In this document: positions 5,917 to 60,196 of the stretch, piece after piece
Layout of the letters: each line of letters starts with the position of its first letter
Position numbering within the stretch: the first letter of the stretch is position 1
Origin: an uncultured Gammaproteobacteria bacterium
GTDB taxonomy: Bacteria; Patescibacteriota; Patescibacteriia; UBA1558; 2-01-FULL-52-15
Length of the DNA stretch: 64,000 bases
NCBI GenBank assembly: GCA_964402565.1
Contig: CAYOCJ010000002.1
Coordinates: 316,659 to 380,658 of the forward strand
Direction of reading: 5' to 3'
The notes under the pieces: generated by a model
Database searches by the model: none
What the model saw: the letters and a program-made list of their open reading frames with translations, nothing else
Told to the model about the DNA's origin: nothing
Made by a program: the position numbers and the translations under genes

Positions 5917-7128
5917 ATGCCAAAGAAAAAGAACCCTCTCAAAAAAAAGATCGTCGCAAAGAAGAAAGCCAAGGACGCGAAATCAAAGCGTTCATCGGCA
6001 AAAAAAATTCGCAATGCCGGGCCGCGGGTCCGCTCTGTTTTGGATAAGAATGCAGTTGACCGGTTGATCGAAAAAGGCAGATCTCGAAGCTTCGTAACTG
6101 AGAATGAACTGATACGGGTTTTCGTGGAAGTCGAGGATCATATTGATGAGTTCGAGGATTTCCTCGATGATCTGGACATCATGGGAGTACAAGTTGTGTC
6201 CATGGAGGGTGGTATTTTGGACATTGGCAAAGATGATCGTACGTCCAAGGTATTTAGCGAGGCAGGCATTGCCCGCGATAAGAAGCGCATGGACCTTTCT
6301 GATATATCGGCCGACTCTATTCAGATGTATCTGCGCGAGATCGGTAAGGTGCCGCTGTTGAACCAGGAGGAAGAAGTGATTTATGCGAAGTTGAAAGAAA
6401 AGGGAGACGCTGAGGCGCGAAAAAAACTCGTTGAGTCCAACTTGCGACTCGTGGTATCAATTGCAAAGAAATTTACCGGCCGATCTCTGACCTTGCTTGA
6501 TCTAATTCAGGAAGGCAATATTGGCTTATTCCGCGCCGTTGATAAATTCGACTATCGCAAGGGGTATAAATTCTCAACCTATGCAACGTGGTGGATACGC
6601 CAGGCGATTACCCGGGCACTTGCAGACCAATCACGCACGATCCGCATTCCGGTCCACATGGTAGAAACGATCAATCGCTTCCAGCAAGTGCAGCGCAGGC
6701 TGATACAAGATCTTGGCCGTGAGCCCTTGCCTGAAGAAATCGCCGCAGAAATGGGCGAAGACCTTGACAAAATCAGGCATATCATTAAGATTTCACAGGA
6801 AACTGTTTCACTGGAGACTTCAGTCGGCGAAGATGATGAAGATTCAACGCTCGGAGATTTCATTGAAGATGAGCGGACCATTACGCCTGATCGCGTTGCG
6901 TCATTGCAGCTATTGAAGGATCATGTGTTCTCCATCATCAGAGATCTGACACCTCGCGAACAGAAAATTCTTGCCATGCGGTTCGGCCTTACTGATGGAG
7001 TCGCGCATACGCTTGAAGAAGTAGGACAGGAATTCGGCGTAACGCGCGAACGTATCCGACAGATCGAAGCGAAAGCATTGGAGCGTATACAGGTGCATCG
7101 AGACATGAAAAAGTTAAAGGACTACTAA
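5917..7128 (+). CDS. rpoD: RNA polymerase sigma factor sigma-70
   Basis: Regions 1.2 ([11 protein letters not shown]), 2 ([11 protein letters not shown]...[32 protein letters not shown]) and 4 (LTPREQKIL...TLEEVG). Lys-rich N-terminus. Confidence 0.93.
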
Positions 7129-25991: not shown

Positions 25992-26128
25992 ATATAGTTT
26001 GCAGAGTGTGCCATATCGGTACATTTGCGCAAGCACTTTGACAATTCGATAAGGAGAAATAACAGAAAAAACAAAAAAATCTGAAGTTTGAACGAAACTG
26101 TTTTCCTACATCGGAAGGAGATACTGAT

Positions 26129-26446
26129 GTGTCAAACGTAGAGAGTGTTTTCGATCTCGTAGTAGCGCTTGTCATAGACTTCGACGTCGGCCATAATGGG
26201 CCGTTCGCGATCTGCCGAGTAGTCAACATCGAAGATTTTCCCAATGCACTACCGGTCGATACTTCGGTCACGTTTCATCTTCGCTATTGGAAGAATGATG
26301 CGCCATTGACTGGAGGATCGCACGTTTTGCTGGGCAACTTGTCCAGCAAGCGTAAGGGATGGCGAGCTTTCGATGCTCGCATGTTCCGGCCTTCGAGTCC
26401 TCAACAAGCAACCAGCAACGAGCAGCAAATCAAAAGGGAGAACTGA
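26129..26446 (+). CDS. hypothetical protein (island gene A)
   Basis: RBS ggaaggagatactg-ATG. The stop overlaps the next start in TGAcATG. Confidence 0.55.
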   Translation: MSNVESVFDLVVALVIDFDVGHNGPFAICRVVNIEDFPNALPVDTSVTFHLRYWKNDAPLTGGSHVLLGNLSSKRKGWRAFDARMFRPSSPQQATSNEQQIKREN

Positions 26447-26447
26447 C

Positions 26448-27872: not shown

Positions 27873-27947
27873 GTAGTCTGACCCAATGGCGGCGACCCTG
27901 AGAGAAATCGAAGGGTCGCCGCATACGACTCTTCTAAGGAGAGATCC

Positions 27948-29087
27948 ATGCCGGAAGATCAACTGAACCCTAGCGAGCCGGATATCGTGCTGCTCGCGAG
28001 TCAGGACGAATACGCCAAGTATTACAACTTGATGACGGTCGTATTGTCCCGGCTCGTCGCGTGGCATCGAAAACTGGCGAGCCAAGGGCAATACGAGGCA
28101 GGGGTCATCGAGCAATTCGTCGAGCGTCTGCTCTACACCATCCGCGTTCTGCGGATGAAGTACACGTACAGCGTCGAGCACGGACTCAAGGTCGATCTCA
28201 CTGACTCGGGTTTTCCCGCAGCCATGGAGATCATGCACCTGGAAACCGATCTCGCGCGAAAGGAAGAGGTCCTGAGGGCCCTTCCTCCGGCGTCGTTCTT
28301 GAAACTCAGCATGTTGGATACGCTCCTCAAGGAGCGGGTCGAACCGCGCGAGCTTCTGTGGCAGATGTCTCAACGTGCCTACATGACCATGCTGGATCCG
28401 GATAAAGTGTTTCTCACGTTCAGTCCTGGCAAGCTCGAACAGCGAGGCCAGGATGTGAATGAACGGCAATATGTGTTCTCGTGGGGCTGCTACGATTTCC
28501 AGAAAAGCAGACCCTACGTGCACGTCATGACGTTCACCCAAGACCGATCGAGCGACCCGCTGCATTTGGAAGGGCCGACCTATGCCCACTTCATGCAGGT
28601 GGTCAAGCACGAGGGTTCCCGCGCACCCGACCTGGCCATCCTCGCTGCGTCTATCGACGACGCTCTCGAGGATATTCATCCGAAGGTCATCAAGCGGGTG
28701 TGTATCGGACCCATGTTCTCACGCTCAGTGGTTCACGGTTCAGAGGTTACGACCGATCCGCTCTACCGCAGTTTGGCCGAACTTCTGTACCAACAGAGCA
28801 AGGCCGACGACGAGTTCCTCCTCGCCTTCAAGGAAGAGGTAGTGTTCTCGAGAGAGCAGCAGGTTACAAAAAAGCTGTTCGCGTCGTCCCGCGTCCGGGA
28901 GATCTTCCACATTCCCGTGGATGACCCCGAGTGTTACCAGAGCCGCGCTTCGGTCGTGCATCGAAGCGTCATTCTGTCGCATGCATTGCTGCAACATATC
29001 GACGGGCTTGGCGATTCTGCCCTGCCCGGCTTCGAGAAGTTCGGCAAGATCACGTATTCGGCAGACGGAGGACTCTATGGCGTCTAG
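27948..29087 (+). CDS. hypothetical protein, 379 aa (island gene C)
   Basis: RBS aaggagagatcc-ATG. Its stop overlaps the start of the AAA ATPase gene. Confidence 0.65.
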   Translation: MPEDQLNPSEPDIVLLASQDEYAKYYNLMTVVLSRLVAWHRKLASQGQYEAGVIEQFVERLLYTIRVLRMKYTYSVEHGLKVDLTDSGFPAAMEIMHLETDLARKEEVLRALPPASFLKLSMLDTLLKERVEPRELLWQMSQRAYMTMLDPDKVFLTFSPGKLEQRGQDVNERQYVFSWGCYDFQKSRPYVHVMTFTQDRSSDPLHLEGPTYAHFMQVVKHEGSRAPDLAILAASIDDALEDIHPKVIKRVCIGPMFSRSVVHGSEVTTDPLYRSLAELLYQQSKADDEFLLAFKEEVVFSREQQVTKKLFASSRVREIFHIPVDDPECYQSRASVVHRSVILSHALLQHIDGLGDSALPGFEKFGKITYSADGGLYGV

Positions 29088-31035
29088 CCAGTCCGGTGTA
29101 ACGATCGAGGAAGCCGATGTTCGGAAATTCCTCGACCGTGCGAACCCCCTGCTTGCTGCAGCGAAATGGCAGCCAAAGCAGGATCCGTTCGCGAAAAGCA
29201 AAGAGCAAGGAGCAGGCGGGTGGCGCGACTCTACAACGTTGCCGCTCGCTGAGCAGTCGATTTCGATCGTCTCCTTCACACGGAAGCTCGCCGATGATGC
29301 GCTTCTGCTGCCCGATGGCTTCAACCACGTGTTGGGCATCGTACGCAAAGGCTTGTGTCTCGGCATGCATCTGTGCCAGCAGTACACCAGATTCTCCGGC
29401 TTGGAGGAACTGGTGCGGCTGAACCAGCGCGGCGCGCTGACAGGCGAGCAGAAAACTCGCTTCAGCGAGATGCAGGTCACGGCAGCTGCTGTCGCTGCGT
29501 TTTCCTCAGCCTACTATGTGGTCTGGAGCCTTTCAGACTACAGAACGGATGAGACTTCAGGGGTCAATATCAAGCTCGACGGTTTACCCGAGCTTGCGCT
29601 CGTGAATCCGGTTTCCGCCTTCCAGTGCATGGTGTTCTATTACGCCGCGTATCTGGAGCGGAGCGGGCAAGTTGCGAGCGAGCTGGATTTCATCGCGATG
29701 ACGAACCTGTATTTCAAGGCCGTCATTGACGAGATCCAGCGGAAAGCAGAATCGTTCAGGCAGGCGGAATCCTTCACAGGCCAGACCTATCGTTTGGCCG
29801 GCAGCGAGTTCTCGATCAACGGGTTCGCGGCCGACCTCAAGGCAGGCAATGGCAGCGTGGAGTTCAACCGCGTCGACCTCGACGACATCGTCGGCAACCA
29901 AGACGCGAAGCACAAAGCGTTGCGGCTCGCCGAACGATTGATGTGCTACGACCTGGTGGCGCAGCGGAATCCCATGAGCGAACTCGGAGGCTTGGCCTTC
30001 GTTCGCATGGGCCACGGCGTGCCGGGTACGGGCAAGACGATGCAGATCTCTGCGACCGCTACCATGTTGTACGATTGGTGTACGGCACTCGGGATACCGT
30101 TCTTCTTCAATCCGATGCCGGATAACATCGTCTCAACGTTCCAGGGCGGTTCAGCAGAACGGGCTATCGCTTGGATGAAGCCCCTCTTCGATCCGAAGCG
30201 GATCATCTATGCGCCGGCCGATGACGCAGAGAATAACTACGAGGACCGGACACGGCAGGGAGTTTCCGCCGGCGTTCGAGAGGTCATCGGAGTCTTTCTG
30301 CGCCATACCGAGGGCGCCTACGCTATCAAGCGGGGCAACTCGGTGATCGAACTCTTCACGAATATCCCGGACCAGATCGATCCGGCCGTTCTTTCACGAG
30401 TCCTTGACCGGTTCGTGATCGGCGGTGCGCTCGAGTGGTACGACTTCGTGGACCAGGACTATCTCTGGTGGCGCAAGCTCAAGGCGGTAGATCCGACGTT
30501 CATCGACATGGAGGATCCGAAAGGATTCACCTATCTCGAGAAGCAGAAGGTGGTAGCGAGCCTGGCTGACGCTTACTCGGCTCAGACCCAGGAAGTGACA
30601 CCTTCGGTGAAGGAGCTCGATCGCATCATTGCGGAAGTCGAATCACAGTATCCGCGGCACGGCCATGAATTTTATGGCCGGCTGTTCGCGGCCTTCAAGA
30701 AAGCGTTCCCGGGGTTTTCCTCGAGGGACGTTCGAAATATCCAGACCCTCATCAGCGAGCGGATCCTGGACTTCGGGTTGCCAGCCGAATGGCTCAAGGA
30801 CCCGGAGATGTTCTATCGCAAGGACTACGCCACAAAGCTCGGGATGCTGAAGGAGCTCATGCGCGAGTCCATGCGCGGCTTGCATTTCGCCGAGGTGCGT
30901 TGGCAGGAGACCTATCGCTATCTCGTCCAGTTCCTGCGAATTCAGGAAACGGGCAGCGAGCGAGAGATCAAGAGAATGGCCGAGCACATTCGGCTGCAAG
31001 CCGAAGCGACAAGGCGAGTCAGTTCGCGATCGTAA
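29077..31035 (+). CDS. classical AAA-family ATPase with about 300-aa uncharacterised N-domain (island gene D)
   Basis: RBS ggaggactct-ATG overlapping the gene C stop. DIVGNQDAK, then Walker A GVPGTGKT, and a second region of homology ELFTNIPDQIDPAVLSRVLDRF. The Walker B is atypical (IIYAPADDAE). Confidence 0.8.
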   Translation: MASSQSGVTIEEADVRKFLDRANPLLAAAKWQPKQDPFAKSKEQGAGGWRDSTTLPLAEQSISIVSFTRKLADDALLLPDGFNHVLGIVRKGLCLGMHLCQQYTRFSGLEELVRLNQRGALTGEQKTRFSEMQVTAAAVAAFSSAYYVVWSLSDYRTDETSGVNIKLDGLPELALVNPVSAFQCMVFYYAAYLERSGQVASELDFIAMTNLYFKAVIDEIQRKAESFRQAESFTGQTYRLAGSEFSINGFAADLKAGNGSVEFNRVDLDDIVGNQDAKHKALRLAERLMCYDLVAQRNPMSELGGLAFVRMGHGVPGTGKTMQISATATMLYDWCTALGIPFFFNPMPDNIVSTFQGGSAERAIAWMKPLFDPKRIIYAPADDAENNYEDRTRQGVSAGVREVIGVFLRHTEGAYAIKRGNSVIELFTNIPDQIDPAVLSRVLDRFVIGGALEWYDFVDQDYLWWRKLKAVDPTFIDMEDPKGFTYLEKQKVVASLADAYSAQTQEVTPSVKELDRIIAEVESQYPRHGHEFYGRLFAAFKKAFPGFSSRDVRNIQTLISERILDFGLPAEWLKDPEMFYRKDYATKLGMLKELMRESMRGLHFAEVRWQETYRYLVQFLRIQETGSEREIKRMAEHIRLQAEATRRVSSRS

Positions 31036-31088
31036 CCAGGTAGCCAGAGCGGGGAAACTCGCTCTGGCGCCTATCCTAAGGAGTAGGA

Positions 31089-32354
31089 ATGCAGAAGCTC
31101 ATCGAAGCCGGCCTCATCGGAGATGGCTTGGTCACGGTCGATTCGCCAGCGATGGTGGATCGATACAACCAGGCGCTCGAGGAGAGCGGCGTATCGAGGA
31201 CACAGCTCACTGCGTTCACGATCGACGGCATCGGCTGGAGTCCGGAGGTGGCGACGGAATGCAATAACCGTTTCTACCTGTCGGTCGGTCTGCCGAATCA
31301 GGTCGGCATCATCTTGTCGCCTGATCAGGAAGGGAAACCGATCTACTTCCCTTTCAGAAGCTTCGATCGAGACCTGATGAGCATCTACTTCAAGCGGTTC
31401 GCGCAGGAGATCGCTGATGTGACGAGGCGATCACCGATCGTCCTCGACATCGACCAGGGCGTGACGGATTACGAAACGCCACTGGATCTCCTCCTGACAA
31501 ATCAGTTCGTTGTGCATTCCTCAGCCGGGAAGCTGGCAGAGGAGGCGCGAGTTCAGCAGGACATCGTCGGACGCTTCATGGCGGACGACGAAACCTGGTT
31601 CGACACCGCGATCCGCCAGCAACTGATCGACAGCGGCAAACAGCATGGCGATCTACGGTACCGCAAGGTAACGATTCCAGATATGCGCTATGACGACGTG
31701 CGGGACTTTTATACCCGTGCGTTCGGCGGCGCGTACCTGTTTCGGAGCCACGGCGGCCCCGAGATCCTCGTACTGGAAGATGCGAGCCTTGTCTCACAAA
31801 CGAAGCGTCGAGGCGTTGTCGTGTACACCACGACGTCTACCAAAGCGCTCGATCAACTCCGCGACTGCGGATTGATCGACATCGACCTCGCGTGGTATCG
31901 GGATCACCCCGAGCAACTGCAACATCTGTACGACAGTTTGGTCGGCGACTTCTTGTGTCGCGAACGGCCTGAGATGGTCCTGGACGATGTGCCGGCGACG
32001 CAGCGCAAGAAATTGCTGCTGTCGCTCAAGGCATCGGCGCCACCGGCTATCTTCGACCTCGAGCGGCTCATGAAGAAGCTCAAGAGCGATTCGCAAGCGC
32101 TGCCGACGGTGCTGTCGACAGATCTCCAGCATGTGCTGATGCATCCGGCTGCTACCGTGTTGAACGGCAGCAGGCGCGTCATCTGGCAGCTGCTGGCCGG
32201 TTATCAGCCGTGGAATGTTTCACGGCAGTATTTCTACAGACGGAACGAATTCGTGGAACAGATCGCCAACTGGCCCGAGCCGATGCAAAGCTGGGCCATC
32301 GAGCTGATCCAGCGGCGGTATCGTCGCGTCATGGATCAGCAAAAGGAGCAATGA
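31089..32354 (+). CDS. hypothetical protein, 421 aa (island gene E)
   Basis: RBS ctaaggagtaggaATG. No recognised domain. Confidence 0.65.
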   Translation: MQKLIEAGLIGDGLVTVDSPAMVDRYNQALEESGVSRTQLTAFTIDGIGWSPEVATECNNRFYLSVGLPNQVGIILSPDQEGKPIYFPFRSFDRDLMSIYFKRFAQEIADVTRRSPIVLDIDQGVTDYETPLDLLLTNQFVVHSSAGKLAEEARVQQDIVGRFMADDETWFDTAIRQQLIDSGKQHGDLRYRKVTIPDMRYDDVRDFYTRAFGGAYLFRSHGGPEILVLEDASLVSQTKRRGVVVYTTTSTKALDQLRDCGLIDIDLAWYRDHPEQLQHLYDSLVGDFLCRERPEMVLDDVPATQRKKLLLSLKASAPPAIFDLERLMKKLKSDSQALPTVLSTDLQHVLMHPAATVLNGSRRVIWQLLAGYQPWNVSRQYFYRRNEFVEQIANWPEPMQSWAIELIQRRYRRVMDQQKEQ

Positions 32355-32355
32355 C

Positions 32356-33000
32356 ATGCCGGCATTTGCGAGCTATCTCCTGTCCATGGTGATTCTCTAC
32401 TTCCTTTCCGGCGCCATCCTGTACAACCTGGATATCGCTTTCGGAGTCCCCGTCGTGACGTGGTGGTATAACCTCACGCACAAGAGCCCCTTGCCTGACG
32501 GCCAGGAGAAAGGTTTCATCTTTCGCCGGCCGACCAAGGTGAAGGGAGTATGGGCGGTTCTGATCTCGTCGGCGTTCAGCATCGCGGTGATGTACTACAG
32601 CCACTCAGTCAATATCGTCGTCGAGGTCTTCGCCTGGGCAGTCCAGGTTCCGTGCATGCTTTTCGGCATGCACATCCTGGGTCGTCCATTGGGAAACCTT
32701 TGGAGCAAGCGCGAGCATGTCTATCAGAAGCTCGACGCACTCGAGTCCGGCGAGACCACACTCAGCGCGGAAGCTCGCAGGATTGCGACTACCGTCGCCG
32801 GCAGAGCACGCGGTCTGAAGGACGAGCTGGCTGCGGCACCAAAGCCTCAGCCTGTGTCCGTTGAGCCTGCTCCGGTGCCGGTGGAGTCCGCGCCCGTCGT
32901 TGTGAACGACAGCACGGCTGCTCCCGAACCCCAGCCCGAAGAAGATCCGACGGCTGGGATGAAGAAGTTCAACGACAAGTACGGCATCAAGAGTCGTTGA
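32356..33000 (+). CDS. membrane protein with Pro-rich C-terminal tail (island gene F)
   Basis: TGAcATG coupling to gene E. 3-4 TM helices. PEPQPEE / PAPVPVESAPV low-complexity tail. Confidence 0.65.
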   Translation: MPAFASYLLSMVILYFLSGAILYNLDIAFGVPVVTWWYNLTHKSPLPDGQEKGFIFRRPTKVKGVWAVLISSAFSIAVMYYSHSVNIVVEVFAWAVQVPCMLFGMHILGRPLGNLWSKREHVYQKLDALESGETTLSAEARRIATTVAGRARGLKDELAAAPKPQPVSVEPAPVPVESAPVVVNDSTAAPEPQPEEDPTAGMKKFNDKYGIKSR

Positions 33001-33001
33001 C

Positions 33002-34624
33002 ATGGGCCCTTCACTTCAAGAGAAGCCTCGAGCGATCGAGGCAGAGAAAGACAACCACGGAGCGCTCTACTGGTTCGCCAGGCGAGTGCTCGGAGGAGTT
33101 GGTCGCTTCTACGGCCGTCACTGGTTCGCAGGAACGATCTTCCTCGTACTGTTTGTCGGAATCACGTTCTGGCTGCGGCCTCTCTACCAGCCCTATGTGC
33201 TGGGGGTCCGCAAGTTCAGCTTCCTGGTTCCGCTCTTCGCGCCGATCGCCTTCTTCCTTTCATGGGCGGTCCGCAAGCGCTCACTGCACTTCAAGATCCT
33301 GATCTGGGCGGTCATCATCGCCCTGATCGGCGGTGCCTGGAAGTGGGAGTCGGGCGCCTACCACTACTGCAAGCTCTACCTCAGATATCGGGATCTCCCG
33401 AAGACAGAGCTCACGCAGTTGCCGCTTACTGATCATGAGCGGATCCAGCCACTGCACTCGGTGTATACGCAGGCGCTGGAGAACATGACGGATGTCGAAC
33501 GGCCGACACGGTTCGACTTCGTCCGGATCGGTGACGAGTATCACTTCACTGCCGCGATCGAGCCAGCAAAGTCGATCAGGCAGACTGTGGGATCGATCAC
33601 CGAACTCCTGTCAGTTCCTGGTACGGTTCCGGCGGCGAATTTCGCTCCCGAGAGTCGTATCAAAGTTCATTTCAATGAAGGCGAGACGATGTACTTGTCG
33701 CACAATATCTTCACTTCCGTGCGGCGAGCATTCAGCCCCTCGCTCTTCTGGTCCTATGAGCCATCCGATGTCTTCCGCGTCCAGAACGACAAGGGAGAAT
33801 GGGTACAAGTCGTATCGCTCATCCACTGGACCGGCATCCTGTTCCCGCGTCCGGAGTTCGGCGGAGTGTATATCGTGCCGCAAGCTGATAGCTCGCCGGC
33901 CGAAGCGCTTCGCAGGACGCTCTGGGGCAGCGGGACATGGGTTCCACCGGAACGTCTGGCTGAGCATCCGTTTCTCATCGGCCAGAACACGGTCGCGTTC
34001 GACATCAGTCGTTTCGCGGCAGAAAGCTTCCGGTTCCAATACGGCTTCTGGGCTCCTGCTCCCGGGTATCACTACAACGACATTCGCATTCCGGAGTTAC
34101 CCGGTGATCAGAACGCCATGCCGTATACCTGTTTCTTCCGTCTCAGCGAGGCGAAGGGGCAAGACAAGCTCTATCAGTACTTCGCCATGGAGCCTTACGA
34201 CGCTGACAAGCAGGGTCTGACGCTTTCGATCTTTTACCCTGCTGACGGCATCGGCTCTGTCTACTACTATCGGCACAATGAACGCGGAGGAGTCGTATCC
34301 GGCGTCTCGGCCATCGCCGCTAAGGTGATGGAATCCAAGAAGCAATACGACTGGACGCGACATCGGCCGGTGGAACACCTGCCCTACATCAAGGACATGG
34401 CTGGAGGCCGACGCTTCTTCTGGAAAACGACGGTCATCACGATGAAAGACCCGATCGTCGACGCCAAGGGGAACAAGGACTCTACCCAGTTCTACATCGC
34501 GGGCACGGTGCCGGAGATCGTCTTCACCGACACCGTCACGAAAATGCCTACTTGGGTCGACTCGCATCACCCGGAAACGTGGGCACAAGACCTCGAAACC
34601 CAGATGAAAGATATCTGGAAGTAG
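33002..34624 (+). CDS. membrane-anchored protein with large extracytoplasmic domain, 540 aa (island gene G)
   Basis: TGAcATG coupling to gene F. Three N-terminal TM segments, then about 420 aa rich in aromatic residues. Confidence 0.65.
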   Translation: MGPSLQEKPRAIEAEKDNHGALYWFARRVLGGVGRFYGRHWFAGTIFLVLFVGITFWLRPLYQPYVLGVRKFSFLVPLFAPIAFFLSWAVRKRSLHFKILIWAVIIALIGGAWKWESGAYHYCKLYLRYRDLPKTELTQLPLTDHERIQPLHSVYTQALENMTDVERPTRFDFVRIGDEYHFTAAIEPAKSIRQTVGSITELLSVPGTVPAANFAPESRIKVHFNEGETMYLSHNIFTSVRRAFSPSLFWSYEPSDVFRVQNDKGEWVQVVSLIHWTGILFPRPEFGGVYIVPQADSSPAEALRRTLWGSGTWVPPERLAEHPFLIGQNTVAFDISRFAAESFRFQYGFWAPAPGYHYNDIRIPELPGDQNAMPYTCFFRLSEAKGQDKLYQYFAMEPYDADKQGLTLSIFYPADGIGSVYYYRHNERGGVVSGVSAIAAKVMESKKQYDWTRHRPVEHLPYIKDMAGGRRFFWKTTVITMKDPIVDAKGNKDSTQFYIAGTVPEIVFTDTVTKMPTWVDSHHPETWAQDLETQMKDIWK

Positions 34625-34790
34625 AGGCACAATTCGCACCTTCAATAATAAGCGCATGAAGCGCGGCGGGATCCAAACTTGGGTCCCGCTTTTTCTTTTC
34701 CAGTACTTGACAAAATCTATAATTTACAGTACTCTATCAAGTTCACATTTAAACAGAAAATCGTCCTTTCCCAAGAAAGGGGAGTGCCAG

Positions 34791-36059
34791 ATGATCGAGT
34801 TTATCAGCAGATACGTATCGGTCCTGGGCCTCCCGCAAAGCTATGCCCAGGCGCTGACTCATGTCATCGCCGTTTTGTTCGTTGCGGCTTTGAGCTTCCT
34901 GTCCAATCTGGTCGCGAAACGGATCATCGTTCGGGTCATGAATTTCATTGTCAGCCGGACGAAGAACCAGTGGGACGACGTGCTCGCCAAGTGGAAAGTG
35001 TTCACCAGGCTCTCGCATCTCGTACCGGTTCTGGTGATCTGGTATCTCGCACCTCAGGCGATTCCGCCATCATCATTTCTCGAGTCGCTCATCGAGCGCG
35101 CTGTCGGCCTGTACGTCGTATGGGTAAGCGTTTCGATCATGTGGGCGGTTACCAATGCTGTCCGCGATGTATACGACCGCTATCCGATCTCGAAACGGAT
35201 CGGCATCACGAGCTTTATCCAGACGGCGAGGATCCTGCTGGTCATTCTGGCCAGCATCCTGTCGCTGTCGATCGCGCTCGCAAAGCCGTTCGGAGTTTTG
35301 ATCGGCGGCATCATCGCGTCCGCTGCGGTCTTCGCGCTGCTCTTGCGCGAACCGATCCAGAATTTCGGAGCCAGTCTGTGGATCGTCTCTCATCAACTCG
35401 TCCGCAAGGGCGAACGGATCGAGATCCAAAGCTGCCAGGTGGATGGCGAGGTCGTCGAGATCAGCCTTCACACCATCGTCGTTCGTCAGAATGACATGAC
35501 GCTGAAAGCGTTTCCTACCTACAAGCTCCTGAGCGAGGGCGTGAAGAACTGGCGCGGCATCACTTCAGCCGGAGGACGGCGGATCCAGCGTTCGATCTGG
35601 ATCGACATGGGAACCATCAAATTCCTCAGTGGCGACGCGCTTGTCCGCCTCGAACAGATCCCGCTCTTGAAACCGTATTTGGATACAGAGCTCGAAGCCT
35701 CGATGCACAGATCGGAGAAAGGAGTCGCGCCGGCTCAACCGTTCGTACATGGTTTTGCCCTGACGAACACGAGCCTGTTCCGTATCTACGTCGACCTGTA
35801 CCTGCGCCAACATCCCGGCATTCATCAAGTGCATACGATTCTGGTGCGCCAGCTGCAGCCGAAAGAATGCGGCTTGCCCATCGAGATCTATGCGGCCACG
35901 AATACGACCGACTGGCCGGAGCACGAGCGCATTCAGGCGGAGATCTTCGATCATCTGCTTGCGGCGCTTCCGTACTTCGAGCTCAGGGTGTACCAGGGAA
36001 TCTCGGGTGCGGATGTGGCGCGTGCCGCACTTGCTTCTGCCGAGATAGAGCGGAAATAG
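34791..36059 (+). CDS. mechanosensitive ion channel, MscS family (island gene H)
   Basis: RBS aaaggggagtgccag-ATG. MscS pore helix plus beta-domain signature (FGVLIGGIIASAAVFALLLREPIQNFGASLWIV...GERIEI...GEVVEISLHTIVVRQNDMTLKAFPTYKLLSEGVKNW). Confidence 0.85.
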   Translation: MIEFISRYVSVLGLPQSYAQALTHVIAVLFVAALSFLSNLVAKRIIVRVMNFIVSRTKNQWDDVLAKWKVFTRLSHLVPVLVIWYLAPQAIPPSSFLESLIERAVGLYVVWVSVSIMWAVTNAVRDVYDRYPISKRIGITSFIQTARILLVILASILSLSIALAKPFGVLIGGIIASAAVFALLLREPIQNFGASLWIVSHQLVRKGERIEIQSCQVDGEVVEISLHTIVVRQNDMTLKAFPTYKLLSEGVKNWRGITSAGGRRIQRSIWIDMGTIKFLSGDALVRLEQIPLLKPYLDTELEASMHRSEKGVAPAQPFVHGFALTNTSLFRIYVDLYLRQHPGIHQVHTILVRQLQPKECGLPIEIYAATNTTDWPEHERIQAEIFDHLLAALPYFELRVYQGISGADVARAALASAEIERK

Positions 36060-36068
36060 GAGACAGTC

Positions 36069-36311
36069 ATGCTCATGTTCTGCGGCATTTTCTGCTTCAG
36101 CATCGTGGTCATCGGATACTTCGCGTGGCGCTGGAAAGAGCCCGCATGGAATATCCCGGTAGCAGCGCTGCTCGTTGCACTCGGCGTTGAGTTCGGGATC
36201 TGGCTCGATAGCAAGAGCTCGATCCTGTTCTTGGTCTTCGCTGCACTCTGCATCGCTGGCGGCTTCTGGTGCCTCAAGCCTCAAATCCGCCCGCCGACCA
36301 CCCCGCGTTAA
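36069..36311 (+). CDS. small 2-TM membrane protein (island gene I)
   Basis: RBS ggagacagtc-ATG. 80 aa. Confidence 0.5.
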   Translation: MLMFCGIFCFSIVVIGYFAWRWKEPAWNIPVAALLVALGVEFGIWLDSKSSILFLVFAALCIAGGFWCLKPQIRPPTTPR

Positions 36312-36366
36312 CGATCAAAGCCGCCTGGGAGTACAGAAACCTTTCACCTGCCTCAAGGAGGGCACA

Positions 36367-36726
36367 ATGACCGATCCGAATGAACGCAGACAGAAGATGA
36401 AGGACGATCTCGCGAGCCTCTTCGGCGGAGCCAAAGCCGAGCTCAAGCACTTCGTCGACAAGGCGGAGGGGCACATCGACCGGGTGGTCGATGGAGCCAG
36501 GGAGCTTCACGAGGACTTCCACGCCGATCCGGAGGTCAAGCGCTTCAAGCGTAGGTTTAAATCCGGCCTGGCGAGTCTGGGCAAGAAGTTGGTGCACAAG
36601 CACGGCACCAAGGCGGAGAGCGAGGCTCTGCACAGGGCGAATCGCAAGAAGAAGGTGAAGGAAAGTCAGACGCCTCCGTCGGAACCCCCGGCGTCGCCTC
36701 AGACGCCGCCCGAGTCCGGCAGCTAG
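36367..36726 (+). CDS. small basic Lys-rich protein with Pro-rich tail (island gene J)
   Basis: RBS caaggagggcaca-ATG. 119 aa. The ORF-track N-terminal extension has no RBS. Confidence 0.5.
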   Translation: MTDPNERRQKMKDDLASLFGGAKAELKHFVDKAEGHIDRVVDGARELHEDFHADPEVKRFKRRFKSGLASLGKKLVHKHGTKAESEALHRANRKKKVKESQTPPSEPPASPQTPPESGS

Positions 36727-36976
36727 ACTCATCGTTCATTGCATCAATCGATCCGCGAGGATCGCGTCATCCTGAAATGGATGGGAACCCGCTGGTACGC
36801 CAGTCGATAAGGGTTCCTTTTTATTTTTAATACCATTGACTTTTTTAACTCTTTTTGGTACTTTTCGCTGTCTTCTTTTGTCCATTAACATCGTGTTTTG
36901 AGAAACAACTGAAAGGGGGTGTTACAGTTAATTTCGGCGCCGGTATGGTAGTTTTTCCACGAGCGGAGAAAAAGAT

Positions 36977-37234
36977 GTGACAAGAGCAGATACTCCTACT
37001 GAAGCGCGCGTCCATGACGTGATTAACGGTAAGCACGGTTTTTTTGCTGTAACAGTAGATGAATCCGGCAAGATCGAAGGCTCGATCACGGTCTCGCTTG
37101 AAGAGAAAGACAATGTCTGGCTCGAAGCAAGGCATCCAAAGCGAGGTGAAATACTCCTGCTGGAGGACATCACCACAAAGCCTGCCGGATGGCGGGCTGG
37201 TCAGGCACGGTTCCTTCGTCCGACTGATCGGTAG
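36977..37234 (+). CDS. small hypothetical protein, GTG start, in a lower-GC patch inside the island (gene K)
   Basis: ggagaaaaagat-GTG. 85 aa. Preceded by the CATTGACTTTT...TTTTTGGTAC motif. Confidence 0.4.
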   Translation: MTRADTPTEARVHDVINGKHGFFAVTVDESGKIEGSITVSLEEKDNVWLEARHPKRGEILLLEDITTKPAGWRAGQARFLRPTDR

Positions 37235-37298
37235 TTCCCACATGCTATTCCGGCATGTGGACAGCAACTAGCATCGAGAAAACAGAAGGAGTTGGATC

Positions 37299-38090
37299 TT
37301 GGACGACAACAACGAAATCCGAAGGCAGAAGTTGGCCGCCATCTTCAGATGGGGGCTGGGTCTTGTCGGTGCTGCGATCATCTCGCCTGTCGTTTTTTTG
37401 GCGGTGAAAGGCATCGTCGGGCTTGCGCTGGCAGTCGGCATCGGTTTCGCGGTCATTCAACTCGCGCCGGTCGTTGCGATGAAGCTCGCCAATTGGCGTA
37501 TGAAGCTCATCATCGACGAAGCCGAGAAGAATCCGATCGAGACCCTGCGCAACGAAACGCTCGACGCTGCCAAAGCTATCGACAGCAAAGACCAAGAGCT
37601 CGAAGACTGGGATACCGAGCTTCGGACATACGACGACGAACTCGTCAGCATCAAGCGGGATTATCCGGATGAGGCTGCCTCTTTCGAGCGCGTCAGCGAG
37701 GAGATGCATACTGGTCTGACGCAGGCTCGTGAGGAACAACAGCGTGCCCGTTGGGATCTCGAAGAAGCGAAGCGAACCGTCGACAAGATGGAGCGTCTCT
37801 ACAAAATGGCGCTCGCCGCACAACGGGTCAAGAGCTTCTCGAAGACCGCAGAAGAGGCGGTCATGGCTGACATCAGGCAGAAGGCAGCCATGGATTCTGT
37901 GCGCACCAATCTGAACCGGTCGCTTTCGCAGCTCAACACTGCGATGGCGAAACGGGCTGCCCGCCCCGCATTGACGGTTGCAGGAATGGGCCGGCAAGCG
38001 CTTGGCGCTGGTCGTCCCGCTACGATCGACATGTCCACTGATGCGAATCCCGCGAAGGTTCCGGTTCCGCGCGTTCGCGATAAGGAGTGA
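37299..38090 (+). CDS. membrane-anchored coiled-coil protein (island gene L), TTG start
   Basis: gaaggagttggatc-TTG. Two N-terminal TM helices, then a charged helical region. Confidence 0.55.
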   Translation: MDDNNEIRRQKLAAIFRWGLGLVGAAIISPVVFLAVKGIVGLALAVGIGFAVIQLAPVVAMKLANWRMKLIIDEAEKNPIETLRNETLDAAKAIDSKDQELEDWDTELRTYDDELVSIKRDYPDEAASFERVSEEMHTGLTQAREEQQRARWDLEEAKRTVDKMERLYKMALAAQRVKSFSKTAEEAVMADIRQKAAMDSVRTNLNRSLSQLNTAMAKRAARPALTVAGMGRQALGAGRPATIDMSTDANPAKVPVPRVRDKE

Positions 38091-38092
38091 AC

Positions 38093-38227
38093 GTGGGAAA
38101 CAAAAAGTATCGCATCGGCATCACGTTGCTCCTGCTCCTCATCCTGTTCCTCTGTTACGTCTACATCCAGAGCAATTCGCAGTCGTCCGATCCTCAGCAA
38201 GACGAACAAGGCATTCGGCTCCACTGA
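38093..38227 (+). CDS. possible 44-aa hydrophobic micro-protein (not in the ORF track)
   Basis: GTG 5 nt after the AAGGAG that overlaps the stop of gene L. Reads VGNKKYRIGITLLLLLILFLCYVYIQ..., a single TM. Confidence 0.3.
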   Translation: MGNKKYRIGITLLLLLILFLCYVYIQSNSQSSDPQQDEQGIRLH

Positions 38228-38258
38228 GCTGATCACACTGAACAAGGAGACCAACGAA

Positions 38259-39203
38259 ATGAACCTGAGCAAGTCCATCAATCGCATCATGTTCGCCCTG
38301 GCGCTGGTCTGCGTCTCGACGCAGCTCTTCGCGCAGACCCCGTTCAAGGTTGCGTCCAACTCGTCGAGCGGCACGTACGACAGGATGCTCGGCGAGATCA
38401 TTGCCGTCTGCAACAGCGACGAGCTGGAGATCGTGAGCGCTGACGTGAAGGGCGGGGCTGTCGGCAACCTGGACGCGCTCTACAACAACAAGGTGAACGC
38501 CGCGTTCATGCATTCCGACGTGTTCATGTCGAGTGCACAGGCCGACCCGAATTACAACCGATTCCAGACCTTGGTCGCGCTCTATCCCGAGCCGATCCAC
38601 GTGTTGGCGCTGAAGGTATCGAAGACCACGGAGAACGGCGCGCTTCACTGGGGGAAGGCTGCCTTCGGCAGTCTTGCGGAGACCAAGGGCTACAAGGTCG
38701 GTGCAGCAGGTGGCGGTGTCGTGACCGCCAGAATCTTGCAAGGGCAAGGTGAAGGCGGTTTCAGCGTCGTGCCATACAATGACGGCAATGAAGTCATTGC
38801 CGCGCTCGACAAGGGCGAGATCGCTGCGGCGATTTTCGTTGGAGCAGCTCCGCTGCCGAACCTGGAAAAACTGGATAAGCAGAAGTACAAGCTCATCCCG
38901 ATCGGCGCAACGATCGAGAACAAGGTCCAGGGCGTGTATCGTCCGGCCTCGGTGAATTACCCGGGCCTGACAAGCGGCCCGCTGCACACACTCGCGCCCA
39001 TGGCCACGCTCATGACCAAGAAGTACACCACGCCGGCCATGATCGACATGCAGCGCAAGTTCAGGGATTGCTTCAATACCCACCTGGGTGAGCTGAAGGA
39101 CGGCCATTCGCCGAACTGGGAATTCGTCGAGGCCGGCGATCACGGCGTACTCACCTGGTACGAGATCCCGCCTGCAGGTCCTGCGGCTCCCAAGAAGAAG
39201 TAA
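38259..39203 (+). CDS. periplasmic solute-binding protein (TAXI-TRAP / PBP2-like fold), secreted (island gene M)
   Basis: Signal peptide MNLSKSINRIMFALALVCVSTQLFAQ. G-rich binding-protein pattern (GAAGGGVVTARILQG...). No transporter partner nearby. Confidence 0.5.
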   Translation: MNLSKSINRIMFALALVCVSTQLFAQTPFKVASNSSSGTYDRMLGEIIAVCNSDELEIVSADVKGGAVGNLDALYNNKVNAAFMHSDVFMSSAQADPNYNRFQTLVALYPEPIHVLALKVSKTTENGALHWGKAAFGSLAETKGYKVGAAGGGVVTARILQGQGEGGFSVVPYNDGNEVIAALDKGEIAAAIFVGAAPLPNLEKLDKQKYKLIPIGATIENKVQGVYRPASVNYPGLTSGPLHTLAPMATLMTKKYTTPAMIDMQRKFRDCFNTHLGELKDGHSPNWEFVEAGDHGVLTWYEIPPAGPAAPKKK

Positions 39204-39257
39204 GTTCCGCGTTTTCTCAATAACACTGTCTAAAAAGGACTGAGCAGACCTGCTGCT

Positions 39258-39294
39258 CCCCGCCATGTCGCATGACCTGGCGGGTTCTTTTTTT
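39258..39294 (+). terminator. rho-independent terminator closing the island operon
   Basis: cccgcca...tggcggg followed by ttctttttttac. Confidence 0.7.
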
Positions 39295-39357
39295 ACTTGG
39301 CTAATTTCATTCCTTACTATATACTAGTCGCGTGAACCTAAGTATTAAAAGGTAACT

Positions 39358-46274: not shown

Positions 46275-46574
46275 CTACCCGTTTCCTTGCAGGGACATAA
46301 CCAGTCCCTGAACGCCAATCTGGAGTTTTCCCAGGATATAGCGAGTCCAGCCAGGCTTCGGGGGCACTTCGATTTCAAGTGTCCCCGCGACCGCACGCAT
46401 GATGCATTCGAGTGATCGCGCGTGCGGATACTTGGTTTCCCTTGTATCGCCCGCCAATTCACCTTGCAGTGTGCGCGCAAGAGACGTGATCGCCTCTTTG
46501 CCGAGTCCCTTCCTTTTCAGTTGGGAAAGGGCTCGTTCAAGTTCCACCTGAAATTGAAAGATCCGGTCATCCAT
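46275..46574 (-). CDS. small hypothetical protein on a GC-rich patch
   Basis: About 100 aa from the internal Met MDDRIF. The sequence ...EIEVPPKPGW... is faintly HicB/RHH-like but not assignable. Confidence 0.35.
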   Translation of the reverse strand: MDDRIFQFQVELERALSQLKRKGLGKEAITSLARTLQGELAGDTRETKYPHARSLECIMRAVAGTLEIEVPPKPGWTRYILGKLQIGVQGLVMSLQGNG

Positions 46575-46823
46575 GCGATGTTCTCCTTGTGATAGGAATG
46601 GATGTGCCCGAATACCCAAGCAATTTGGGTTCCAGGTTAACAGCGCATAATATAGCTTTTCTAGGAAAAGTCAACTCTATATGAATCCTAACTTCACTGT
46701 TGTATTCAATAAACATTGACTTTTCGGTACTTTTTTGGTACGGTCGAAAGTCTTTTTGATGTTCATTGACAACCGTCTGTGCGGTTGTCTCCAACCATTC
46801 TGGACACCCTGAGGAGGGAGATA

Positions 46824-49250
46824 ATGCGTACAGCAAAGGTACTAAAGCCTTGGCGACATCAACGCCAAGCACAGCTTGCCATCACAGTAGCACGTGAGTC
46901 AGGCAAGCACGCCGGCCTCATGGTCATGGCAACGGGCTTAGGAAAAAATCTCACGGCAGCACTCGAGTATGAGAAGTTCAGAAGGTCAATGCTCCGTCGT
47001 GGCAAGCGAAGCCGATTGCTCTTCCTTGCACACCAGTCCCACATGCTCGATCAGGCGCGAGAAACTTACGAAATGCGCTTAGGTCGCAGGATCAGCTGCG
47101 GGATGTTTAACGATGTCTTCAAGGAGACAAAGGCAGACGCAGTTTTCGCAACATTCCAGAGCATGGATAAAGTGCTTTTCGGAAAGAAAGGAAAAAAGCG
47201 TCGACCCTTCGGAAGACATGGATTCGACTACGTCATCATCGATGAGTCGCATCACAGCCATGCACACACCTACCGACGGGTCATTCGCTACTTCAAGCCG
47301 CGTTTCACGTTGGCTATGACCGCGACACCTGACAGAGCAGATCTTCAGGACATACGCGATCTCTACGGCCCTGAGGTGTACTCACTCCCTCTCGAGGAAG
47401 GTCTTGCGCGAGGTTTGCTCGCGCCTGTGGACTATCGCCTCGTAACGGATGGATTGCACAAGCTAAGCATTCTCGACACACCGATCGGAAGATTGAGCGT
47501 CAAACGTTTGAACAAGACACTCTTTATTCCAAGGCGTGACGCCGAGATTGCAAAGATCATCCTCCAGCATGCACGGCGTCAGCCTGATGCACGTATGATG
47601 ATCTTCTGTCCTTCGATCAAGTATTGCACCCGTCTCGAACGACACTTACCGAATGCGGTTGCAATTCACTCGAGACTCACTGACAAGGAACAAGCCGATC
47701 GTCAGGCGAAGTTTCGGACAGGCGACTACACAACCGTTTTGACGGTGGACAAGTTCAACGAAGGGATTGATATCCCTGAGGCGAACATCATCGTCTTCCT
47801 TCGCTCCACAGCATCACGCAGGATTTTCCTGCAACAGCTCGGCCGCGGGCTTCGTAAGCTTCGTGGCAAGAGAAACGTCCTCGTCCTAGATTTCGCTGCA
47901 AACTGTGAGCGACTTCAAATGGTGAATACTCTCTGGCGTTCTGTCGACAAAATTAAGCGACAAAGCGCTGGGAAAACCAAGGACCGAGCTGTTTCAGTGG
48001 ACATCGGAAAGGTGAAGTTCTCGCATGTCGCGCAACGGATTCTCGATGTCTTGGGTCGCATCCAAGAAGGGTATACTCGAGAAGTGATCATTGCTCAGCT
48101 CAGAAGCCTTGGAAAACACCTCGATAGGACCCCAATGACAGACGATATCCGAGAGGCGTCTAAAAAAGGTTTGTGCGCAAATCCGACTACGATCTTACGA
48201 CATTTCGGCACCCTGCATGCTGCACTCAAGGCTGCTGGGTTCAGGCCAACACGAGGTTGGGGTGCGACCGAAGATGAGGTCAAGCTCCAAATCAAAGCAG
48301 TCGCTAAAGCACTTGGGCATACACCCACGATCGAAGAGTTGCGAGCCGCTTGGAGGAAAGGCGACATTGTTCACGAAGGCGTCATTCGACGCATCTTCGG
48401 AACTGTCACCGCTGCTTTCGAAGCTGTGGGCCTTGTTACTCGCAAGCCTAAGCACTACACCACAAGCGAGATCAAGAAACAGCTCAAGGAGATTCAAAGA
48501 ACAACTGGAAAAGCACCAACAAGAGCGGAAATAACGAATCGTCACGCAGCCGGTAAAGGTCCGAGTCTTCACATCGTGATCAAGCGCTTCGGCTCTTTCT
48601 CGAAAGCTCTTCTTGCGATAGGCACCCTCGCGACTAACATGATAAAGCCGGTCAAGGGGGGGAAAGCCCATCGTAAAGGCGAGGCCAGCAACAAGTTTGT
48701 GCTTGGCTGCCTCAAACGACTCGAGCGGAGCCTTGGTAGAATCCCTTCGAGAAAGGACGTTGATGTTGCTGCGCGAAAGGGCTTGTGTCTGAGTAGCTCT
48801 ACCTACGCTAAGCGATTCGGGTCTCTTACAGCGGCAAAAAAAGCTGCTGGGATCGAGATTGTTGTTGAGGTGAAGCGAACACGAAAACAACACATTCGCG
48901 ATTTGAAGCGACTCGCAAAGAAACTGGGTAGAACACCTTTCGTAGAGGATGTAAAAGCTGCCTACACGAGACACGAGTGTGGCAGCACATCCATGCTGTA
49001 TAAAGTCTTCGGGTCATTCAACAATGCGCTTGAAGAGGCTGGCCTCACCCCAAACCGAATCCACGAGTACACAGATCAAAGGCTCATCCATTCACTGCAG
49101 GAGCTTGGTCGCAAACTGGGGAGGCCACCGTATAGCATCGATGTAAACCGAGCAAGCAAAGAAAGCGGAGCCTTCCCGGGGCTAGGGCCATTCCTGAAAG
49201 CGTTCGGAACCTTCAGAAAAGCACGGGAGGCGGCGGGCTTCAAGGCCTGA
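46824..49250 (+). CDS. SF2 helicase (ResIII/DEAD-like: motif I GLGKN, motif II DESHH) with C-terminal array of about six homing-endonuclease-associated repeats
   Basis: RBS gaggagggagata-ATG. VMATGLGKN, VIIDESHHSHA, MTATPDR, and a helicase C-domain (QQLGRGLR). The C-terminal roughly 420 aa is made of about 50-aa repeats of the form L..LG+.PT..E....+GL......++FGS...AL..AG. Confidence 0.8.
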   Translation: MRTAKVLKPWRHQRQAQLAITVARESGKHAGLMVMATGLGKNLTAALEYEKFRRSMLRRGKRSRLLFLAHQSHMLDQARETYEMRLGRRISCGMFNDVFKETKADAVFATFQSMDKVLFGKKGKKRRPFGRHGFDYVIIDESHHSHAHTYRRVIRYFKPRFTLAMTATPDRADLQDIRDLYGPEVYSLPLEEGLARGLLAPVDYRLVTDGLHKLSILDTPIGRLSVKRLNKTLFIPRRDAEIAKIILQHARRQPDARMMIFCPSIKYCTRLERHLPNAVAIHSRLTDKEQADRQAKFRTGDYTTVLTVDKFNEGIDIPEANIIVFLRSTASRRIFLQQLGRGLRKLRGKRNVLVLDFAANCERLQMVNTLWRSVDKIKRQSAGKTKDRAVSVDIGKVKFSHVAQRILDVLGRIQEGYTREVIIAQLRSLGKHLDRTPMTDDIREASKKGLCANPTTILRHFGTLHAALKAAGFRPTRGWGATEDEVKLQIKAVAKALGHTPTIEELRAAWRKGDIVHEGVIRRIFGTVTAAFEAVGLVTRKPKHYTTSEIKKQLKEIQRTTGKAPTRAEITNRHAAGKGPSLHIVIKRFGSFSKALLAIGTLATNMIKPVKGGKAHRKGEASNKFVLGCLKRLERSLGRIPSRKDVDVAARKGLCLSSSTYAKRFGSLTAAKKAAGIEIVVEVKRTRKQHIRDLKRLAKKLGRTPFVEDVKAAYTRHECGSTSMLYKVFGSFNNALEEAGLTPNRIHEYTDQRLIHSLQELGRKLGRPPYSIDVNRASKESGAFPGLGPFLKAFGTFRKAREAAGFKA

Positions 49251-49514
49251 CGCAAAGTGAATTTCTATCGGTACCTTCAAGAAGGCCAATCATTCGATTC
49301 AACATCGAGAGACTGGCCTTCTTTTTTTACAAAAAAGTTTCTCGAAACGCGAAAGGCCGCGCCTTTCACAGGCACGGCCTATTCGTCAACTTTCGATTTG
49401 GCTCCCAGCCTGCTGAACAAAATTCGAAATCCCGGCGGGGCGGTATATCCTCTTGCGCAGTATCATTTTGAGAGGTACTGTGCATCATACGATCTTTCAA
49501 ACACGGAGGAAACC

Positions 49515-50099
49515 ATGAGACTCTTTTGCGCATGCGTATTGTTTCTCGGACTTGCGGGGATCGGCAACGCTTTGGCGAGCGGCCAATGTTCACCGGCGCC
49601 GCTACCTCCGAAAGAGGAACGGACCGATGATTTCTGGAAGGGGTATTTGAAAGAAAACCTCACCAACTGTTACGGTGAGCTGCATCCGCAAATCAACGCA
49701 TCAGTCATTGGCATTGAGCCCACTGATTGGATTTCATCAAACTGGTGCCCATTGACATGTGCTATTATCATGAGCAGGCCCTTCCTTGATTCTACGGATG
49801 AGCCATATGAAATTCTCTTTGTGCTTGGCCATGAGGCCGGGCATATTGCTCTCAGCGGGAGGGACTTTGCTCATGCGATTGGCCTCGAGGAAGTCGAATA
49901 TGCCGCAGACCTCATTGCCGTACAGGCTATTCCATCTGGAGCCTGCCATGGCGCTCGGGCATTGCAGTGGATATACGATGCGGCATCGAAATCAAAAGCA
50001 CTACCGCCTGAAGCTAGGCAAAAAGTGTTGGAGGAAATACGACAGCGGAGAAAGGCTCTCTTAGCCAAATGTGCAGTAGACGCGGTATTAGTCAAATGA
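49515..50099 (+). CDS. secreted HExxH zinc-metallopeptidase-like protein
   Basis: RBS acggaggaaacc-ATG at MRLFCACVLFLGLAG (signal peptide). HEAGH motif at VLGHEAGHIAL. Confidence 0.55.
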   Translation: MRLFCACVLFLGLAGIGNALASGQCSPAPLPPKEERTDDFWKGYLKENLTNCYGELHPQINASVIGIEPTDWISSNWCPLTCAIIMSRPFLDSTDEPYEILFVLGHEAGHIALSGRDFAHAIGLEEVEYAADLIAVQAIPSGACHGARALQWIYDAASKSKALPPEARQKVLEEIRQRRKALLAKCAVDAVLVK

Positions 50100-50188: not shown

Positions 50189-50330
50189 CTACATTATGGC
50201 GACTGGATTTTTTCATGGTTCCGCCCATTCGGCAAGCTCAGGGCGTCGCAAAAAAGATAAAACCGCCAGAAGAAATCTGACGGTTTTATCTTGGCTCCGC
50301 GAGTCGGATTCCGCTTCGCTAGACCCTTTC
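50189..50330. repeat. two partial direct copies of the tRNA-Asn 3' end plus flank (att-like scars)
   Basis: 50193-50217 (ttatggcgactggattttttcatgg) is identical to 50461-50485. 50293-50312 (tggctccgcgagtcggattc) is identical to the tRNA 3' end at 50484-50503. 50218-50233 is a degenerate copy of the same segment. Confidence 0.7.
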
Positions 50331-50482
50331 TGATTTCCCCCGACCCCCATCTCGGACACCTTCGATTTCCGACGCTCGTTACACTCGCTGCCTTCCACCC
50401 ACGGGGGAAATCCGGTTCGAATCCTCTGAAAATCCAAATCAATGAAAAAATCCACTCACCTTATGGCGACTGGATTTTTTCA

Positions 50483-55345: not shown

Positions 55346-55363
55346 GGGGATGAGGAAGGAAAA

Positions 55364-58231: not shown

Positions 58232-58236
58232 GCAAG

Positions 58237-60018: not shown

Positions 60019-60196
60019 CAAAGGCCGGTCTACTATCGGTGCAGGTGTTCCCCTCGGAATGCCTGCACCTTTTCTTTATAATAGTGGAAACGAAATGGTT
60101 GACTTTTTTATCAATATTTGTTAGAAGTATCGGTTGCTCTTTAACACGCTATTCGAGAAAATATTGAAAAAAACGGAGGTTCTTCTCGTGATACAA

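Follow-up and report, generated by a model that had tools for sequence, protein, structure and literature searches.

The 64,000-nucleotide stretch of DNA analyzed here (the window) contains two intergenic sites at which closely similar, promoter-like sequences precede an open reading frame. Site 1 (36836) lies upstream of a GTG-start ORF at 36977, designated gene K, while site 2 (46716) lies upstream of the ATG of a helicase gene at 46824; both sites are on the forward strand and face the ORFs that follow them. The pattern CATTGACTTTT-N7-TTTTTGGTAC was found in exactly two copies across the 64-kb window, at 36834-36861 and 46714-46741, both on the forward strand, and a scan of the window with ATTGACTTTT-N7-TTTTTGGTAC returned exact forward-strand matches at 36835-36861 and 46715-46741, with no third copy in the window even when three mismatches were allowed. 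No match was obtained in 100 dinucleotide-preserving shuffles. The match is far above random-sequence expectation, and the shared motif reported by the initial annotation is thus real. Counting the preceding C (36834 and 46714), the two sites are identical at 21 of 28 positions, and the 15-nt gap between TTGACT and GGTAC that had been noted is present in both sequences. The sites had further been described as lying in AT-rich patches before genes in otherwise GC-rich DNA. The patches are evident, with 35% GC at site 1 (36818-36960) and 40% GC at site 2 (46620-46823) against 52-59% GC in the flanks of the sites, but the GC-rich setting fits site 1 better than site 2, where the surrounding DNA is only about 52% GC.

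Site 1 follows the end of another transcription unit, in which the last ORF upstream of the site terminates at 36726. The features of this region are:

36784..36828, + strand: intrinsic terminator of the upstream unit, a GGAACCC...GGGTTCC hairpin followed by TTTTTATTTTT, predicted by folding
36836..36841, + strand: -35 hexamer of site 1, TTGACT, matching TTGACA at 5 of 6 positions, read from the sequence
36842..36858, + strand: spacer of site 1, 17 nt, T-rich (TTTTTAACTCTTTTTGG), with the extended -10 TG at 36856-36857, read from the sequence
36859..36864, + strand: -10 hexamer of site 1, TACTTT, matching TATAAT at 3 of 6 positions, with T1, A2 and T6 kept, read from the sequence
36965-36968, + strand: Shine-Dalgarno sequence (SD) GGAG before gene K
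36977-37234, + strand: gene K, an 85-aa GTG-start ORF, putatively coding
37299-38090, + strand: 263-aa TTG-start ORF with the SD GAAGGAG, encoding a membrane segment and a coiled coil

Folding of 36775-36832 yielded a free energy of -21.8 kcal/mol (z = -3.5 relative to shuffled sequences); a U-tract immediately follows the stem, and the -35 of site 1 starts 8 nt past the T-tract of this terminator (end 36828). Transcription from site 1 is predicted to start near 36870-36872, and the GTG at 36977 is 113 nt past the end of the -10. The intervening leader (about 105 nt) had neither a significant fold nor an Rfam match. The GC content at third codon positions was 0.49 in gene K compared with 0.69-0.81 in the neighboring genes. 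Site 1 most likely drives the genes of 36965..38090, i.e. gene K and the 263-aa ORF, for which Pfam and NCBIfam returned no matches and PADLOC weak matches only. The same layout of a terminator followed by a promoter is repeated at 34660-34742 and, on the reverse strand, at 58232-58140. The module at 34660-34742 precedes an MscS-like gene; the ORF call for this gene, from 34656, spans both the terminator and the promoter, and the ATG at 34791, located after the SD AAAGGGGAG, is the likely true start. More broadly, site 1 is located in a GC-rich island (window 26000-39300; 57.5% GC compared with 49.7% in the rest of the window) that codes for a 704-aa AAA ATPase, a DUF6638 protein, the MscS-like channel and a TAXI-like binding protein, as well as several further proteins lacking a family match. 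The genes of the island are separated by AT-rich terminator/promoter modules, and none of them had a PADLOC match.

The region around site 2 is organized as follows:

46647..46674, - strand: divergent promoter TTGACT-16-TATTAT for a 114-aa ORF (46275-46619, - strand), found by promoter scan
46716..46721, + strand: -35 hexamer of site 2, TTGACT, read from the sequence and a member of the promoter class described below
46722..46738, + strand: spacer of site 2, 17 nt (TTTCGGTACTTTTTTGG), with the extended -10 TG at 46736-46737, read from the sequence
46739..46744, + strand: -10 hexamer of site 2, TACGGT, matching TATAAT at 3 of 6 positions, with T1, A2 and T6 kept, read from the sequence
46768..46789, + strand: perfect 8-bp hairpin GACAACCG-N6-CGGTTGTC in the helicase 5' leader, found by inverted-repeat search
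46811..50099, + strand: operon downstream of site 2, with the SD GAGGAGG, the helicase gene and then an ORF for an M48-like peptidase
46824-49250, + strand: helicase, 808 aa, with ResIII, Helicase_C and six HNH_repeat domains
49257-50099, + strand: M48-like peptidase ORF

The intergenic region 46620-46823 thus carries two back-to-back promoters, one on the reverse strand (46674-46647) and site 2 on the forward strand, and the -35 of the divergent promoter and four more bases (TTGACTTTTC) recur exactly, in inverted orientation, at site 2. Transcription from site 2 would begin near 46750-46752, as judged from the position of the hexamer, and the helicase ATG is 80 nt past the end of the -10. The leader of site 2 folds at -24.9 kcal/mol (z = -2.2), and its hairpin at 46768-46789 has no counterpart at site 1. 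An Rfam search of the window returned nothing at the gathering threshold and nothing with E <= 1 overlapping either leader. The closest homologues of the helicase belong to Patescibacteria and share at most 55% identity with it, the nearest one being encoded on a short contig; in PADLOC, the helicase had generic helicase and restriction-type matches only, and the island genes had none. Some of the helicase homologues (P0072, P0085 and P0102) carry fused sigma-70 domains (regions 2-4); RNase III and dsRNA-binding domain matches are present as well in two of these fusions, and one is named sigma-70 family protein by NCBI. Beside the helicase/M48-like operon, the last 20 nt of the 3' end of tRNA-Asn (50483-50502) are repeated without change at 50292-50311, and the downstream flank of the tRNA is duplicated too at 94% identity (window 50191-50224, 50284-50311 and 50458-50502). 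These duplicates look like att-type remnants of past integration. They were considered and rejected as island borders of the helicase locus, since they do not enclose the helicase operon and are separated from the tRNA by about 190-290 nt.

Both sites consist of TTGACT, a 17-nt spacer ending in TGG, and TACnnT, which places a TG at -15/-14. Each therefore shows every element of an extended -10 promoter of the sigma-70/SigA type, i.e. a -35 element, a spacer of 17 +/- 1 bp, the TG and TAnnnT (with T-12, A-11 and T-7 kept), in an intergenic position facing a gene at leader distance, and in a genome whose primary sigma factor is intact in regions 2.4, 3.0 and 4.2. The description of the sites as promoter-like is fully borne out by this anatomy, position and orientation. 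A simple promoter scan with a threshold of 4 of 6 matches in the -10 failed on both sites because their -10 hexamers match at only 3 of 6 positions. The weakness of these hexamers would also be consistent with one or both matches being non-functional chance occurrences in AT-rich intergenic DNA. That reading is very improbable, since a whole window would be expected to hold just 0.3 copies of the full combination of -35, 17-bp spacer and TGnTAnnnT, and the placement and orientation of both sites are correct. Across the window, TTGAC-N14-16-TGnTAnnnT was found six times compared with 0.3 expected from block shuffles, and TTGAC-N17-19-TAnnnT 16 times compared with 5.3 expected. The total number of sites of this promoter type in the window was 13-16, including those of three tRNA transcription units. 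The following positions belong to the class, resemble it or have a homopolymer tract after the -35:

830, - strand: directly upstream of tRNA-Ser
50601, - strand: directly upstream of tRNA-Asn
53201, - strand: directly upstream of tRNA-Leu/Pro
7377, 13427, 25963, 45311 (- strand), 45414 and 46674 (- strand): upstream of ORFs
60099..60128, + strand: a weaker third look-alike, TTGACTTTTTTATCAATATTTGTTAGAAGT, with the -10 TAGAAG lacking the final T
6764, 7377, 13427, 25963, 34707 and 58168 (- strand): sites of the TTGACAAAA type
36836, 46674 (- strand), 46716 and 60099: sites of the TTGACTTTT type

The look-alike at 60099..60128 sits after a hairpin and T-tract and before a GTG-start ORF at 60189.

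Conservation of the class was examined in the syntenic relative GCA_964422585.1, which shares 70-79% nucleotide identity with the window. For the tRNA-Ser, 13427 and 4098 promoters, the -35 and -10 elements are kept in the relative while the spacers have diverged, which is the pattern that would be expected of functional primary-sigma promoters. Downstream of the 13427 promoter, the leader (13456-13590; L173 about 16020-16190) is far better conserved in the relative than nearby coding DNA. Because a 23-nt indel falls within it, this leader is non-coding; it had no Rfam match and could represent either a small RNA or a cis-regulatory element.

To place the likeness of sites 1 and 2 among that of other promoters, the 13 sites with a 17-nt spacer were compared pairwise without gaps, ignoring the anchors TTGAC, TA and T. 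Sites 1 and 2 share 15 of 30 non-anchor positions. Three other pairs also share 15, the pair formed by 7377 and 13427 shares 17, and the mean over all 78 pairs was 8.8 (sd 3.0). Identity within the spacers of sites 1 and 2 was 10/17 (P = 0.14 given their composition, the spacers being about 60% T). Nor is GGTAC anything special here, because TGGTA occurs in 4 of the 13 sites and hexamers beginning with TAC in 6; six of the 13 have TGn before the -10. With the promoter consensus set aside, the likeness of the pair is not above that of other promoter pairs of this genome. Sites 1 and 2 probably owe their likeness to a common consensus and to spacers that are rich in T, within AT-rich intergenic sequence.

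The T-rich parts of the two sites (TTGACTTTT and TTTTTGG) could alternatively be an operator, overlapping both promoters, for a specific regulator that co-regulates the island and helicase operons, as the initial annotation had proposed in suggesting a common regulator linking the two loci. TTGACTTTT is present in four copies in the window compared with 0.56 expected, an approximately 7-fold enrichment, and these copies are located at sites 1 and 2, at 46674 (- strand) and at 60099; moreover, sites 1 and 2 have the top gapped alignment score among promoter pairs. This explanation is nevertheless unlikely. TTGACAAAA is equally enriched, with six copies in the window compared with 0.64 expected in shuffles, so that a homopolymer after the -35, repeating the last base of the hexamer, appears to be a general promoter habit rather than a specific site. 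No dyad or direct repeat is common to the two sites: site 1 has no inverted repeat of any kind, whereas GGTAC-N6-GGTAC and the TTGACTTTTC inverted repeat, 41 nt away, are found at site 2 only. The non-anchor identity of the pair is not exceptional, and no regulator gene is evident beside either locus. The letters shared by the two sites are those of the -35, TGnTA and the T runs, and other pairs in the window are equally or more alike, which argues against a common specific regulator.

In this genome, chance does not account for the T tract that follows the -35, and the enrichment of an A4 or T4 tract immediately after the -35 is the only mildly unusual feature of these promoters. It may be a lineage-specific promoter feature. 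A more elaborate reading is that the primary-sigma promoters come in two flavors, TTGACAAAA and TTGACTTTT, and that the T-flavor, with its second T run before TGG, marks co-tuned accessory loci. These loci might be the island operon, the helicase and its divergent neighbor, and the ORF at 60189, and the co-tuning could operate through spacer geometry, supercoiling or a spacer-binding factor. We regard this reading as improbable, and as slightly less likely still than an operator.

A further possibility is that the two promoter regions are homologous, either as a duplicated or transferred cassette or, as had been suggested, as remnants of one mobile element. In gapped local alignment, sites 1 and 2 ranked at the top of 120 promoter pairs with a score of 33 compared with 28 for the next pair. 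The aligned segment is about 65 nt long including gaps, and its score exceeds the maximum of 31 in 2000 shuffles. It takes in a GTCTT at the predicted start of transcription, 8 nt past GGTAC at both sites, and TGTCCATTAACA / TGTTCATTGACA further downstream. From this top score, therefore, a small excess similarity of the pair remains. The location of site 1 in the GC-rich island and the att-like tRNA-Asn fragments near the helicase locus would likewise be in keeping with transfer. Against this, the upstream flanks of the two sites show no similarity (P = 0.97), and the similarity of the downstream flanks, a gapped match GTCTT...TGTyCATTrACA, is marginal (P = 0.04). There are no terminal repeats, no further copies in the window and no relationship between the genes downstream of sites 1 and 2, and the helicase is not enclosed by the tRNA-Asn fragments, which are some 190-290 nt away from the tRNA. 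A search of 241 million metagenome records for a 23-base version of the motif that includes the shared downstream GTCTT returned only two sites, whose contexts are unrelated, and this version was absent from 2.9 million viral contigs; one of the two metagenome sites precedes a transporter-like ORF and has the hexamer TACGTT. Mobile promoters and MITE-like repeats also place two near-identical short promoter segments before unrelated genes, but the likeness of sites 1 and 2 is limited to the consensus and T runs and lacks flanking homology, terminal repeats and extra copies. A common origin is accordingly judged improbable, to about the same degree as an operator, and the suggestion of a mobile-element remnant is not upheld.

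The window itself encodes the sigma factor taken to read these promoters, as well as a second one:

5917..7128, + strand: rpoD, primary sigma factor, assigned by NCBIfam RpoD models
15666-16232: ECF-type sigma factor gene, 188 aa, with Sigma70_r2 and r4_2 domains

The window also contains dnaG. Proteins named Candidatus Komeilibacteria share 82-89% identity with RpoD and other Patescibacteria follow closely, so that the DNA is assigned to a CPR (Patescibacteria) bacterium near Ca. Komeilibacteria. The window proteins tested by cluster look-up were all singletons without names. Among solved structures, RpoD was best aligned to B. subtilis SigA (7ckq_F). It is canonical in regions 2.4, 3.0 and 4.2, and its stretches of 10 residues in region 3.0 and 14 residues in region 4.2 are identical to those of B. 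subtilis SigA. Residues of region 3.0 read the TG and those of region 4.2 read the -35 (PMC2613000). RpoD would thus be expected to read both site 1 and site 2.

The presence in the window of the ECF-type sigma gene and an accompanying 236-aa ORF, together with -10 hexamers that are poor matches to TATAAT, would allow the motif to be an alternative sigma promoter instead, as the initial annotation had also proposed. An AAC in the -35 and a CGT in the -10 are typical of ECF promoters, and the TG-reading region 3.0 is missing from ECF sigma factors. Sites 1 and 2 resemble such promoters (e.g. those of B. subtilis SigW, TGAAAC-N16-CGTA) in having two blocks at a fixed spacing and a T-rich segment after the -35, yet they have neither AAC in the -35 nor CGT in the -10, and TTGACT with TG-n-TA exactly 17 bp away is the geometry of a primary sigma factor. 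Upstream of the ECF gene itself, the sequence (ATTGAAACA...TGTACTAT) differs in its -35 from sites 1 and 2 and is spaced 2 nt wider. In at least 118 unrelated genomes, moreover, the motif has the character of a primary-sigma promoter with TACnnT, as detailed below. An alternative-sigma site is thus highly unlikely, given a -35 of TTGACT and a -10 region of TGGTAC from which the ECF hallmarks are absent. The ECF sigma gene is followed by the overlapping 236-aa ORF, which has no family match and possibly encodes an anti-sigma factor, and the pair (15666-16929) is conserved in GCA_964422585.1.

In order to assess the motif outside the source genome, an 18-base version (TTGACTTTT-N8-TTTTGGTAC) was scanned in a collection of species-representative genomes. 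It was found in at least 118 stretches of unrelated genomes, all as single copies, and the matches listed include Clostridia, Bacilli, Patescibacteria, Bacteroidota, Chlamydiae, Planctomycetota and others. Among the 114 distinct instances in the matches listed, position 6 of the hexamer was T in 83% (base frequency of T at these loci, 28%) and the hexamer was TACAAT in 43%; TACTTT, the hexamer of site 1, was also among the hexamers following the motif in the matches listed. Of the 99 testable instances among the matches listed, 58% were followed within 250 nt by the start of a same-strand ORF of at least 100 aa, compared with 23% of random positions, and only 9% were inside a same-strand ORF, compared with 50% of random positions. 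A 16-base version had 53 scattered matches in viral contigs, nearly all of them single. The expectation that the motif would be biased in position relative to gene starts therefore held strongly in these other genomes, but as the property of a generic promoter found in many phyla rather than of one specific to the two loci.

Taken together, sites 1 and 2 are very likely independent, ordinary RpoD/SigA promoters of the '-35/TGn' type, with no dedicated regulator and no common origin. TTGAC would be contacted by sigma region 4.2, the TG by region 3.0 and the TA...T by region 2.4, and initiation would follow about 7 nt after the hexamer, close to 36871 at site 1 and 46751 at site 2. Site 1 would restart transcription just after the intrinsic terminator and lead into gene K (36977) and the 263-aa ORF, while site 2 would lead into the helicase and M48-like genes, back-to-back with the divergent promoter. 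Initiation itself, the start sites and the sigma factor used are predictions drawn from the sequence. In the '-35/TGn' class, exemplified by E. coli gapA P1 and T4 Pminor, the TG and a good -35 compensate for a weak -10 (PMC2613000). Sites 1 and 2 share with these promoters a good -35, the TG at -15/-14, a -10 with no more than three consensus matches and the optimal 17-bp spacer (PMC2613000); the class was defined by mutagenesis and in vitro transcription, whereas sites 1 and 2 are sequence predictions from an uncultured CPR bacterium. They also resemble Gram-positive SigA promoters with a -16 region, RpoD being closest, among solved structures, to B. subtilis SigA and TGn preceding the -10 in 6 of 13 sites, but positions -17/-16 of both sites are TT (TTTG) and depart from the Gram-positive TRTG consensus (PMC2613000). 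The Bacteroidetes-type promoter TAnnTTTG was also considered and fits neither site.

For this uncultured Patescibacteria genome, the analysis marks two transcription-unit starts and one terminator, adding little beyond annotation, and does away with the regulatory connection that had been supposed to join the GC-rich island to the helicase locus. It further points to the use, in this lineage, of canonical TTGACA / TGnTAnnnT promoters, which are conserved in the relative and precede tRNA genes, a pattern useful for operon calling in CPR genomes. To our knowledge, CPR promoters have received little experimental study, and a literature search for work on promoters or transcription start sites in Patescibacteria returned nothing relevant. 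Elsewhere in the window, a 45-nt repeat is present in two copies that are 96% identical (55302-55346 and 58188-58232). Each copy consists of a GC-rich hairpin, GGCCCCGG-CCACACG...CGTGTGG-CCGGGGCC, beside an A/T-rich tract and is terminator-like, and the two copies flank a region with a gene for a 617-aa AAA ATPase.
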